Source: Octopus vulgaris (taxonomy: Eukaryota). From it: a DNA stretch of 64,000 nucleotides. The stretch lies in the NCBI GenBank assembly GCA_951406725.2, contig CATOCA020000001.1, positions 5,766,001 through 5,830,000 of the forward strand. The letters run 5' to 3'. The translations under genes were made by a program, and so were the position numbers. Below, piece by piece: positions 13,831 to 60,434 of the stretch (its first letter is position 1; every line of letters begins with the position of its first letter). The notes below the pieces were generated by a model. That model saw nothing but the letters and a program-made list of their open reading frames with translations, had not been told where the DNA came from and searched no databases.

Positions 13831-13984
13831 CTCAACAGCGCTCTGTTTCATTATAGCTTTCACACCATCTGTCCATTCCGGAAATGAACTTGCAGCCAAA
13901 TGGAGAGGAGTATTGCCGTCGCTGGTCTTCTCGTTGATATTCCTGCCCCGAGAGAGTAATAGCTCCACAGCTTGCAGTCCACGC
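13831..13984 (-). CDS. Exon B of ankyrin gene (xRGLQAVELLLSRGRNINEKTSDGNTPLHLAASSFPEWTDGVKAIMKQSAVE)
   Basis: 154 nt, acceptor ...TTTTCCTCTCAG|, donor |GTTAGT, phase 2 to 0. Canonical GNTPLHLAA; in frame with exon C. Confidence 0.88.
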
Positions 13985-14054
13985 CTGAGAGGAAAAGATA
14001 GAAACAATGACTAATTTACATTAAATATGAAATTATTTTGGCTTTCAGACGAAA

Positions 14055-26440
<12,386 letters not shown>

Positions 26441-30230: not shown

Positions 30231-30399
30231 ATTTATAAAAATGTCGATGATGAGGATTAGAGAAAAGAGGTGAAGAAATAAATCAAATATCATCGACAAA
30301 TATATGTGGCTACTTTTCGTATTGTGTATAAAACATTTCATATTGTGTATAAAATAATAAACAGTCAAATTTGAGAAGGCAATAAACAGAACAACTTAC

Positions 30400-30479
30400 T
30401 ATTGTGGGATCATTTCTTATTAATATTTTAACTCCTTCAATGTCACCATTTCTAATTTTCTGTTCGATATCCTTCATGT
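30400..30479 (-). CDS. Exon A of ankyrin gene (MKDIEQKIRNGDIEGVKILIRNDPTI), probable N-terminal capping repeat; ATG at 30477
   Basis: Acceptor ...TTTTATTCAAAAG|, donor |GTAAGT, ends phase 0. NGDIEGVKILI matches a first ankyrin cap and the equivalent MIB2 exon end from recall. Confidence 0.65.
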
Positions 30480-45409: not shown

Positions 45410-48400
45410 ATATAACAAACAACAAATGCACTACGGAGGAAACAACTACCAACACAATATACCTGAGGAACTAAGACGTAACACTAGGTTCAACAACAGA
45501 CTCCAGAACAGAGCACCACAAACTCACTCTGACAATTATAACAACATGAGACAGATAAATAATAGCTTTGAACATAACTACACCAACCATTTTTTAGACC
45601 CCACACACAGGAACAGGGACACACGATGGCAAAGGACAAACAAAAGAAACCTCAGGTAATTAAGATAATCAATCTCTCAAACAAAGAACTTACACCTAAC
45701 GAAATAAGCATACTCTCCAAAGGACTTAAATTTACACCCACCCCACAACGTTCTAATTATTATGAAATGAAAGATGATATTTCGGAATTTTGCAGAAAAC
45801 TAAGACTCACCGAGGCATTTCAAGACAAACAAATAGAGGAGGACTCAATAGCTAGAAACAAGAGCAATTACACCCCCACCAAAGGTAAGAATAAAGCCTT
45901 AGACCGCTATTGTGACTACATAACTAATTTCCCGTTTCAATTCATCAAGAAACAAAAACACAGCCCTAACTTCAACAAAAGAGAATGGAACGACCTCATC
46001 AAACTAAGAGAAGACAAAACAATAACAATTAAGGAGGCAGATAAGGGCAACGCGATAGTAATAATGAATACAAACAATTATAAAAAATTAGTGCTATCCC
46101 TATTAAGAGATGAAACGTATTATGAAAGGGCCCAACAGTATAACCAGCAAAAAATAATGCATAACCTTAGGACATTAATCAACACATACCAAGAAGGACT
46201 CACGAACAAGGAGTATGAATACATCACTAACTTCAAATGCAAATCGAGTTTGTTCTATGGTATCCCTAAGGTACACAAAAGCCAAACCATTAGAGAAACG
46301 TGCAAAACATCCACCGACACACTCATCAAAATCCCTTCACCAAATGATCTTAAACTAAGACCGATAATAGCAGGGCCAGCATGTGAAACTCACCGCCTCA
46401 GCAATTTCTTAGACACACTTCTTAAACCTTTCCTAAAACACATCAAAAGCTACGTAAGAGACGATATAGATATGCTCAACCACCTCCCTAAAACAGTCAA
46501 TGAGAAAACCCTTCTAGTATCATTCATCCCTCACAACCTAGGAATAGAAGCGATCACCTTCTGGCTGAATAACTACCCCTTTGAACTCCCAACTCGCATA
46601 AACAAAGACCTTATAATAGAAGGACTTAGATTCATTTTAGAGAACAATTATTTTATTTTTGACAATGATTTCTACAGGCAAAGATCGGGAACAGCGATGG
46701 GCACGCGTACTGCACCATCTTTTGCCAACCTAGTGATGGGATACCTCGAGAAAATACTATACCGGATGACACTCGAGAAATATGGAAACACCTTCGCCAC
46801 CTATACCCATAACAACTGGAAAAGATACCTCGGTGACTGTTTCATCATCTGGGACAAAGGCATAGAGAAACTTGAGGAATTTAAAATTCTATTAAATGGA
46901 ATAAATGACAATATACAATTCACGATGGACCACAACGAAAAAGAATTACCATTTTTAGACATCCTCATTAAGAAAACCGGCAACAAGAGACAGATATCTA
47001 CTATAAACCGACAGACTCTAAACAGTACCTACCCTTTGATTCATGCCACCCACGACACACTAGAATGAATGTCCCTTTTTGTTTTGCTAGAAGGGTTTGC
47101 ACCATAATATCAGACACAAACACCCGACACACACGTCTCCAGGAACTTAGAACCACACTCACAAATAGAAACTATCCACAGCCCCTAATAGACAGTGCAA
47201 TCCAACGGGTACTTAAATTAAGTATAGAAGACCTGAGACAAACAAAACCAAAAAAGAAAGAACAATTAAAAACCCTTCCCTACATCTCTACACACAACCC
47301 ACTCAACAATGAGGCCTTCAACACCATACTACAAAGCACAGCCCTACTAAAGGGAGACCCAAAGATGAACCAGATCCTCGAAACACACACCATCATTAAA
47401 AGTAAACGGCAACCAAAATCCTTGAAAAGGATTTTAACCCAAGCTACACTGCACTCAACATCAACCACAAAACCAGCAGTTAGAAAATGTGGAAGGCCCA
47501 ACTGCGGAATCTGTGTCATCTTGAAAGAAGGATCAGAATTTATACTGGAACAAGGCCACCAGTTCACCATTAGAACAAACTTCACCTGCGCATCAGAAAA
47601 CTTAATTTACGTCATAACATGCGCAGGCTGCAATAGGCAGTATATAGGACATACAAAAAATAGCTTACGTAACAGGATGGCGGTGCATAAATCACAAATT
47701 AGAAACCCTGATTACCGCAAAATACCGGTCAGCGGACACATAGATAGATGTGCTGGAAATGTAAATCCGAAATTTACAACTAACCCGCTCTATAAATTCA
47801 GTGACAACGCAACCTTCACACAACGCCAAAATAAAGAACTATATTTCATAAAAAAATTTAGACCAAGTTTAAACACCCTGGGCCAGGAATACTAAAACAA
47901 AAGATAAGTCCTCCGAAAGGGAGAAGCGGGGTTCCACCACGGCCGCTGCTTCAAACAGACACTCACTCTGACGGAAATATGCCTTAGTAAAAAAGGGAAA
48001 AAATTCTTTCGTGCAAATCTGACCCTGATACATACGATACAGCTAAGGGTCAGACCCGATTCTGATTGGTCAACAAGTTGATGACGTCTAGCTCTGCTAG
48101 AATGGACAGGATACAAACAGGGGACAGTCATTAGTCAGAATATTGATGACGTCCTTTTCTGCTTGAATAGTCACCTAACAAGTACAGACAGGGGGCAGAT
48201 CTAATGTAGCTATAAGTCGTGATTGGGCAGAATCTGGATGACGTCCCGCTCTGCTTGACTAACGAAGCGACTGGTCAAAACAGGAAACAAACAAGAGGCA
48301 GATATAATGCAGCGATTGGTCAAAATAATGATGACGTCCCGTTCTACTTGACTAACGAAGCGACTGGTCAAAACAGGAAACAACCAAGAGGGAGTTATAA

Positions 48401-50729: not shown

Positions 50730-50884
50730 GTTAATCCTCGAAATGAAGATGGTCGCACACCGCTGCACGTGGCCTGTTCACGGGGATACTTGCACATTGT
50801 CGACATTTTGTTGGGTCACAATGGCATCGATGCCAATGTGGTTGACAACAATGGAGACACACCACTGCATGATGCAGTTCGGAG
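50730..50884 (+). CDS. Exon C' of ankyrin gene, right copy (VNPRNEDGRTPLHVACSRGYLHIVDILLGHNGIDANVVDNNGDTPLHDAVR[R])
   Basis: 155 nt, AG|...|GTAAGT, phase 0 to 2, open frame; paralogue of 9837-9991. Confidence 0.9.
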
Positions 50885-51861
50885 GTAAGTCCCCATTAGA
50901 TCTGGAATATCCAAATCTGTTTCTTTTATGTTTTCAATAATGTTTGTTTCTTTTTCATTCAGTTATTTATGTCATAATCCCACCATGGGGTCATTGTCTT
51001 TCTTCTCTCTTTCGCACTGAAATAACACTGTAATCTACTTTATTAATTAATCATCACCATAATTGTTATTGTTGTTGCCTGACTGGACACTTTACTTCAT
51101 CTCGTTCTCCATTTCCTCAACGTCACAGGTTCAAATCCTCTCTCTTCTTCCTTTCATCCCATCTATAACTACTTTCTCTCTCTTTCTCTCTTTCTTCCTC
51201 ACTCTCTCTCCTTTGTAGTTTCCCTATTTATTCCGACCCTGGGCTAAATACAGAATCATCCCCTTACAGTATTTACATTTGTCTCTTTTATGTTCCATGT
51301 TCAAATCCTACCAGAATATTTACTATCACTCTGGGGTCAATATAATCTGTACCAGTAATACCCAGGGGTTCCTTTAATAAACTGTCTTCCTTCTTTTCTC
51401 CAGTTCTTGTTTCTTATTACTTTTGAAGAAAATAAATTGTGTTATTTTATTTACGACTCTTTACGTTCAGAGTTCAAATCCTGCCAATGTCAACTTCTTC
51501 CATCTTTGCAAGGTTGATAAAATACAATACCAGTCATGTACTGGGGTTCATATGATTACCTGTAGCCCTTCTTTCCTTCCTAAATTTCATGTTTATATAA
51601 GCTGTCAGAATTCTTAGCAGTATTTTCCCTGTCTTTACATTTCTGGGTTTACTCAGGTGTGTATATATCATTGTTCTACTGTGTAGAGTGTGTATTGAAT
51701 AAATATATATGTGTGTGTGAGTATGTGTGTAATAATTGCTGTAATTAAGTTATTGTGATCTAATTACATTTGTTTTCTTTAATGACCTAATAACTATTAT
51801 CTCAAGCTGTGTGATGTTTGCTTTTTTTTCATGTTTTTCTTTCCTCATCCATTACTTTCAG

Positions 51862-51898
51862 GCGAAAATATAAAGTGGTGTGTGCGATGCTGAACCAG
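51862..51898 (+). CDS. Micro-exon D', right copy ([R]RKYKVVCAMLNQ)
   Basis: 37 nt, TTTCAG|...|GTTAGT, phase 2 to 0, open frame. Confidence 0.83.
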
Positions 51899-56585: not shown

Positions 56586-56792
56586 GATTCAGTGAATTTA
56601 GAAATTGTGAACAAAGAATACAGGACACCATTGCTTGAAGCTGTTTCGGACGGTCACCTCGGAATAATGCAGCGGCTGATAGCCAGGGACGCGAATGTAA
56701 ATGCCGTCGACCATGGAGGAAATAATTGCCTGCATCTGGCGTTAAAAAGAGACTTTCATTCTGAGGTGGAGCACATGACCATGTTAGATCAG
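56586..56792 (+). CDS. Exon E', right copy (DSVNLEIVNKEYRTPLLEAVSDGHLGIMQRLIARDANVNAVDHGGNNCLHLALKRDFHSEVEHMTMLDQ)
   Basis: 207 nt, phase 0/0, splice sites intact, 6 nt in-frame indel relative to exon E. Confidence 0.9.
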
Positions 56793-60258: not shown

Positions 60259-60434
60259 TTCTGCAAGGATCTGAAACTGGGAAGCGAAGAAAGGTACTCT
60301 GGTGTGGTAGTTGCCAGCTACCTAGCCCACCACGGGGCCAACTTTTACTGTAAAAACAAAAGTGGCAGAACACCATTGGACCTAATAAAAAAGGAAAATT
60401 TAAAAAAGATGTTAAAGACGTTATTCTCACCGCA
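60259..60434 (+). CDS. Exon F', right copy (FCKDLKLGSEERYSGVVVASYLAHHGANFYCKNKSGRTPLDLIKKENLKKMLKTLFSP[Q/H])
   Basis: 176 nt, TTTGTAG|...|GTAAGT, phase 0 to 2, in frame with E'. Resembles the recalled MIB2 segment VACFLALEGAD...NHRGRSPLDL that precedes the RING domains. Not in the ORF track. Confidence 0.85.

Follow-up and report, generated by a model that had tools for sequence, protein, structure and literature searches.

A 37-nt ankyrin exon with mosaic variants, uncoupled from its intron flanks, in a Mind bomb 2-derived gene family of Octopus

The window analysed here is a 64,000-nt stretch of the Octopus vulgaris genome (assembly GCA_951406725.2, contig CATOCA020000001.1, forward-strand positions 5,766,001 to 5,830,000). 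It carries parts of two related genes, referred to as copies D and D', which lie on opposite strands and whose introns align at 90-95%. Each copy contains a 37-nt micro-exon (exon C), and the acceptor pattern associated with it occurs twice in the window against 0.11 occurrences expected. The features of the two copies, in window positions, are as follows.

51862..51898, plus strand: exon C of copy D', the 37-nt micro-exon, running from phase 2 to phase 0 and encoding the last base of ankyrin position 12 and positions 13-24 (turn and outer helix)
6884..6920, minus strand: exon C of copy D (37 nt), a mosaic of the L087/L092 type and the LSK-ending type
50730..50884, plus strand: exon B (155 nt) of copy D', which begins in phase 0, ends in phase 2, encodes one and a half ankyrin repeats and is hypervariable as well
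50885..51861, plus strand: intron between exon B and the micro-exon of copy D', 977 nt, GT-AG, along which the copies differ little throughout (diversity of about 0.02-0.065 in each 37-nt window)
56586..56792, plus strand: exon D of copy D', 207 nt, starting in phase 0 and encoding the next ankyrin repeats, with low within-type diversity (0.037)
60259..60434, plus strand: exon E of copy D', encoding the last ankyrin-like repeat
9837..9991, minus strand: exon B of copy D
13831..13984, minus strand: exon A of copy D, encoding ankyrin sequence, with a phase-2 start at a repeat position equal to that of the micro-exon
221..433, minus strand: exon D of copy D; a 100-N gap interrupts the gene about 2.2 kb beyond the window start
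30394..30477 (approximate limits), minus strand: probable first coding exon of copy D (tblastn, E 3e-8)

The RING, linker and death-domain exons of copy D' sit 2-14 kb past the window end. Both copies are incomplete as assembled, copy D meeting a gap and copy D' being without 5' exons, which were sought on the plus strand over 150 kb upstream and not found. The introns of copy D hold multi-kilobase (ATC)n arrays (window positions 7380-9200 and about 14000-26400); the exon expected between its first exon and exon A was not found, and may have been lost in or near the larger array. A long coding-like stretch resembling a retrotransposon (about 45500-47900) is situated just upstream of copy D', near the end of its similarity to other copies, and a tandem duplication of about 590 nt at 93% (3626-4796) is found where a LINE-like insertion ends in the intron between exons C and D of copy D.

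By length, micro-exons are exons of 51 nt or less. An earlier note on this DNA had assumed that the 37-nt segment is a spliced coding exon, and this is borne out by contigs from four public runs of four studies, presumed to be RNA and compared at 85% likeness. The exact GT-AG junction from 50884 to 51862, which removes the 977-nt intron, is present in the contigs of three of the four runs and a one-letter variant of the junction in those of all four, these contigs representing the gene family and not necessarily copy D' itself. Exons B, C and D stand in a single frame in database protein models. The segment is a short internal GT-AG exon of which the upstream (B-C) junction is found in presumed-RNA contigs and the downstream (C-D) junction is given by the protein models only. 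It is not a skippable cassette, since skipping 37 nt between phases 2 and 0 shifts the frame, and the 'swappable module' of the earlier note could not be exchanged by splicing. An alternative cassette or mutually exclusive micro-exon was rejected on the same ground of length and because D and D' are parts of separate, oppositely oriented genes.

The proteins nearest to the two copies are 'MIB2-like' and labelled Octopus vulgaris, O. sinensis and O. bimaculoides; they combine ankyrin repeats with a RING domain (PF13920) and, in many, a C-terminal death domain (PF00531). In the AlphaFold model of one relative (P0007, mean pLDDT 80), the exon C product forms the turn after a helix (175-181) and then a second helix (185-192), and in this placement the micro-exon contributes the helix-turn and the outer helix to one ankyrin repeat. 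Foldseek matches of the model include DARPins, ankyrins and, among 500 ankyrin matches, the MIB1 ankyrin domain (8v0e, E 3.7e-15). One family protein (P0088) is annotated with leucine-rich repeats besides ankyrin repeats, and in a neighbouring family gene (L043-L045, G000:C31 about 5673000-5694000) small, repeated linker exons follow one another between the RING and the death domain.

Mind bomb 2 is the origin of the family. On C26 of genome G000, at about 2.52 Mb, a full-length gene of the Mind bomb 2 type has exons homologous to exon D, exon E and the RING exon, a phase-2 intron at repeat position 12 that matches the 5' end of the micro-exon, and a phase-0 boundary before exon D that matches its 3' end; an ankyrin array followed by a PF13920 RING, with homologous exon boundaries, is a Mind bomb trait that the family has kept. 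The two matching boundaries belong to different, longer exons in the C26 gene, from which the 37-nt exon itself is absent and in which the matching helix ends a longer exon, and our inference is that ankyrin exons, rearranged in register with one another, gave rise to the 37-nt exon. Mind bomb E3 ligases are defined by N-terminal MIB/HERC2-ZZ and Mind bomb SH3 repeat modules. None of these modules was among the precomputed Pfam domains of the family proteins, and PF18346, for which the best 40 candidates in G000 were scored, gave matches on C26 and C13 and none in the C31 or C29 clusters. The octopus family differs from Mind bomb 2 in being without the N-terminal substrate modules, in having typically one RING and in carrying a C-terminal death domain. 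A second expansion lies on C26 at about 0.73-2.54 Mb, where several Mind bomb-like genes stand in a cluster and have retained the SH3 repeat (16 of the 18 PF18346 matches).

Retrieval of the variants through their conserved intron flanks, as the earlier note had proposed, was carried out on genome G000. The exact flank pattern gave 85 matches, against 7 for a reversed control, and removal of 11 unrelated matches and addition of four copies from other searches led to a set of 78 copies, which is a lower bound, a DNA search having given 105 candidates. Fifty-four copies, mostly on C31, are of the window type, and 24, mostly on C29, are of a diverged C29 type. Exon C is 37 nt long in 74 of the 78. 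Six of the 54 window-type copies have exon indels; the 48 in-frame copies left when these are omitted encode 30 distinct 12-residue peptides. A further set of 40 copies with intact exons B and C omits the 24 C29-type copies and 14 window-type copies (no fetched intact exon B, or indels). The intron between exons B and C varies from 0.9 to 10.5 kb among copies, and exon D falls into at least four discrete types, about 70% alike, which are all joined to the same homogenised B-C block.

Among the 40 intact copies, the mean pairwise difference amounts to 0.256 for exon C, 0.144 for exon B and, for four intron flanks, 0.022-0.053, and in 23 short-intron copies consecutive 37-nt windows before, in and after exon C give 0.039, 0.257 and 0.029. 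The diversity peak stops at both splice sites, and the exon-versus-intron contrast first seen between copies D and D' is found family-wide. Further out, intron diversity goes up about 270 nt past the micro-exon. Exon D of the window type has a diversity of 0.037 in 15 copies, and exon C one of 0.238 in 13 of these. Within exon B, diversity per 37-nt window goes up to 0.204; because exon B has a similar excess over the introns, the micro-exon marks the far end of a pattern that extends across the gene. The hydrophobic helix pattern reported as kept between the two copies holds throughout, V58 and L62, which are presumed to be buried, being invariant in all 40 copies, and exposed positions take 4-9 residues. 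Summed over equivalent ankyrin positions, entropy is 14.7 bits in the micro-exon and 7.5 bits in the preceding repeat, a twofold difference. By general ankyrin geometry, the outer helix, on which most of the exon lies, would face away from the usual concave binding groove.

The earlier counts for copies D and D' proved exact on recount: the two micro-exons differ at 12 of 37 nt, nine of 12 whole codons are altered, all nine changes are non-synonymous, and there is no stop or indel, with 2 mismatches in 130 nt upstream and 8 in 100 nt downstream, as reported. The pair is nevertheless ordinary, as 12 or more differences in the 37 nt are seen in 273 of the 780 pairs (35%) that the 40 intact copies form. 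At the 12 sites that differ, each allele is present in at least three other copies and no difference is private. The two are not sister copies, a relationship ruled out by the rank of D' for D, and conversely, which moves between 2nd and 35th of 39 with the region compared. The exon of D' is identical to that of copy L074 on C29. That of D is 3 nt away from L087 and L092 and is an exact one-crossover mosaic of their type (first 26-31 nt) with the LSK-ending type. Copy L112 (G000:C31:8913591-8923590) has an exon B 100% identical to that of D' and a different, 35-nt version of the micro-exon.

Micro-exon variants are assembled from shared blocks, the LSK ending being found on five different middle blocks. 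Four-gamete incompatibility within the exon is 0.19 for sites 1-3 nt apart and climbs to 0.72 for sites 19-36 nt apart; all four gametes are present in 132 of 280 between-codon site pairs, with a minimum of eight events. Under permutations that take related copies as exchangeable, the increase with distance (rho 0.31, codon permutation p 0.001) is significant, as is the number of distinct exons that are exact one-crossover mosaics of two others (14 of 31; codon shuffles give 8.05 +/- 1.94, p 0.001). Linkage falls off within some 12-24 nt, from an r2 of 0.18-0.22 at 1-6 nt inside exons. Exon C distances are uncorrelated with those of either flank (rho 0.04 and -0.06, p 0.35 and 0.70), whereas the flanks correlate with each other across the exon (0.29, p 0.01). 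The exon and intron histories, which the earlier note had suggested comparing as trees, are uncoupled when measured by such distance correlation, and conversion rather than crossing over is indicated, because the flanks stay linked while the middle does not. As for micro-conversion from a third paralogue, exchange itself is supported, copy D being an exact mosaic, but the single donor gives way to a pool of at least 54 close copies, and the exchanged unit is smaller than the whole exon, since the four-gamete and mosaic tests place breakpoints inside it. Recent donation from the C29 type was ruled out, since 8-13 nt separate each of the 40 window-type exons from the C29-type exon closest to it. 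Among 26 O. sinensis-labelled database proteins, 22 distinct 12-residue variants occur, of which 13 are identical to G000 variants and the other nine are mostly new combinations of the same blocks.

Strong positive selection, offered earlier as one source of the difference between the copies, is not supported. Minimal-change counting (35 non-synonymous, 10 synonymous, p 0.59) puts the exon dN/dS at 0.99 and the pairwise Nei-Gojobori method puts it at 1.53, neither giving a significant excess over only about 8 synonymous sites; at the 16 variable-type positions, conservative counting gives 1.04. With these values, and with all differences being shared standing variants, the nine of nine non-synonymous changes are no sign that positive selection has acted anew between the two copies. 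Shared and singleton alleles stand at 35:8 in the exon and 61:93 in the flanks (p 1.6e-6), and singletons per site are at the intron level (8/37 in the exon, 41/194 and 52/200 in the flanks), on which ground a mutational hot spot was rejected. The exon excess lies wholly in shared variants, which fits old variants kept and reshuffled while the introns homogenise, and selection is likely to preserve them. According to PMC3924837, an exon whose divergence peaks while the introns around it are homogenised bears the signature of selection under conversion, and for Arabidopsis RPP8 PMC6771003 invokes intergenic exchange with selection, since neutral simulation fell short of the diversity; the old shared exon variants amid homogenised introns described here follow the same pattern.

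The explanation that we hold to be the probable one, with moderate confidence, is that of a spliced ankyrin exon whose variants are mosaics of short blocks, likely gene-converted between copies, with selection likely preserving the different versions while the introns were homogenised. Conversion would take place between DNA copies, aided by their near-identical introns, in tracts of roughly 10-25 nt, a length read from linkage decay in one assembly and not from observed events, and selection would act against the erasure of exon variants as the introns homogenise. The ankyrin array is predicted to bind diverse, probably foreign, proteins, and the RING and death domains to mark bound proteins or to signal. 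Against this explanation count a dN/dS without significant excess, the position of the variation on an outer helix that is not the usual binding face, the indels in six of 54 copies, and the incomplete state of both window copies.

Relaxed constraint remains the main rival, although we consider it unlikely. Exon versions would then be leftovers of old subfamilies on a tolerant, exposed helix, neutrally shuffled and persisting because their divergence hinders conversion. This would account for a dN/dS of about 1 and for the four old exon D types, each of which may once have had its own exon C; moreover, the outer helix appears constrained in exon B (13 non-synonymous to 11 synonymous) and not in the micro-exon (24:7), a difference that is not significant (p 0.087). 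However, exchange inside the exon can be demonstrated, and divergence therefore does not block conversion; diversity returns to baseline at both splice sites, the variants are at intermediate frequency, and no link remains between exon C block and exon D type in a table judged by eye.

More doubtful still is a history in which new point mutations recently came under strong positive selection, following a burst of duplication, and the look of mosaics is due to repeated mutation. Star-like intron spectra (Tajima's D -1.7 to -2.6, taken descriptively), the lack of variation at two fourfold sites of invariant exon codons and the 28 transversions among 43 variants are in its favour, but singleton changes are not in excess, synonymous variants are shared at codons 54, 55, 57, 59 and 60, multi-base blocks recur, and incompatibility depends on distance, a dependence not expected of repeated mutation. 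Spliced mRNA as the template for conversion would explain why diversity and uncoupling end at the splice sites, yet it is highly improbable and finds no support, as r2 across the junction of exons B and C is 0.018-0.036, which is the null level (0.025), and none of the 78 copies has lost the intron, although a flank-based search could not have found such a copy. Chimeric exon consensus from collapsed repeats, suggested by the exon indels, the gap near copy D and the missing 5' exons of copy D', is just as improbable given the recurrence of 13 of 22 variants in O. sinensis-labelled proteins, the remaining nine being mostly block recombinations, and the other letters carried at the exon B-C junction by contigs of four studies.

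The evolutionary mechanism favoured here, conversion of short blocks between copies with selection, is already known from MHC and R genes. Conversion among MHC genes is described in PMC12674619, and MHC, plant R genes and red/green opsin exon 5 share, according to PMC3924837, many paralogues, shared polymorphism, chimeric haplotypes and an exon peak between homogenised introns, the patchwork traits found here also. The octopus exon differs from these in a peak just 37 nt wide, in mosaics inside that peak and in belonging to a putative cytoplasmic ankyrin E3 ligase. The Arabidopsis RPP8 NLR triad resembles it in intergenic exchange and selection, but comprises three loci and population alleles in PMC6771003, whereas the octopus data come from at least 54 paralogues in one assembly. 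In fungal NLRs with highly conserved ankyrin repeats, the repeats are diversified by recombination and selection, with proposed non-self sensing; all selected sites but one map to the concave face there, and the repeats shuffle within a NOD-domain gene (PMC4986451). By comparison, the octopus exon varies mainly on the outer helix and the family has no NOD domain, NACHT and NB-ARC being absent from the precomputed Pfam domains of its proteins. F-box as well as MATH-BTB expansions of nematodes and plants are likewise enlarged ubiquitin-ligase target-recognition families with a hypothesised role in pathogen defence, of a different fold and acting as adaptors rather than single-chain RING proteins, and the evidence given in PMC1866355 is similarly indirect.

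By analogy with the fungal ankyrin NLRs (PMC4986451) and the F-box or MATH-BTB expansions (PMC1866355), the family may combine a variable target-binding array with a RING whose sequence makes ubiquitin-ligase activity likely and with a death domain as output, its most plausible role being defence. A literature search, whose coverage mostly excludes subscription journals, found no paper describing the family. The present analysis contributes the sub-exon mosaic structure, the uncoupling from the flanks and the variability of the outer helix, and the micro-exon is less important as a stand-alone module than first supposed. With near-identical flanks in about 54 copies, the 37-nt exon offers an unusually clean site for measuring conversion tract length and selection. 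It is conceivable, though we would not expect it, that germline micro-conversion builds an octopus library of intracellular ankyrin-RING-death sensors in which this exon brings variety to a second recognition surface, on the array's outer face, a reading drawn from its twofold variability over the preceding repeat. Cephalopods are not known to have antibodies or T-cell receptors. At least 78 ankyrin-RING-death genes with MHC-like patchwork exons make the family a candidate variable sensor of diverse intracellular threats in these animals.
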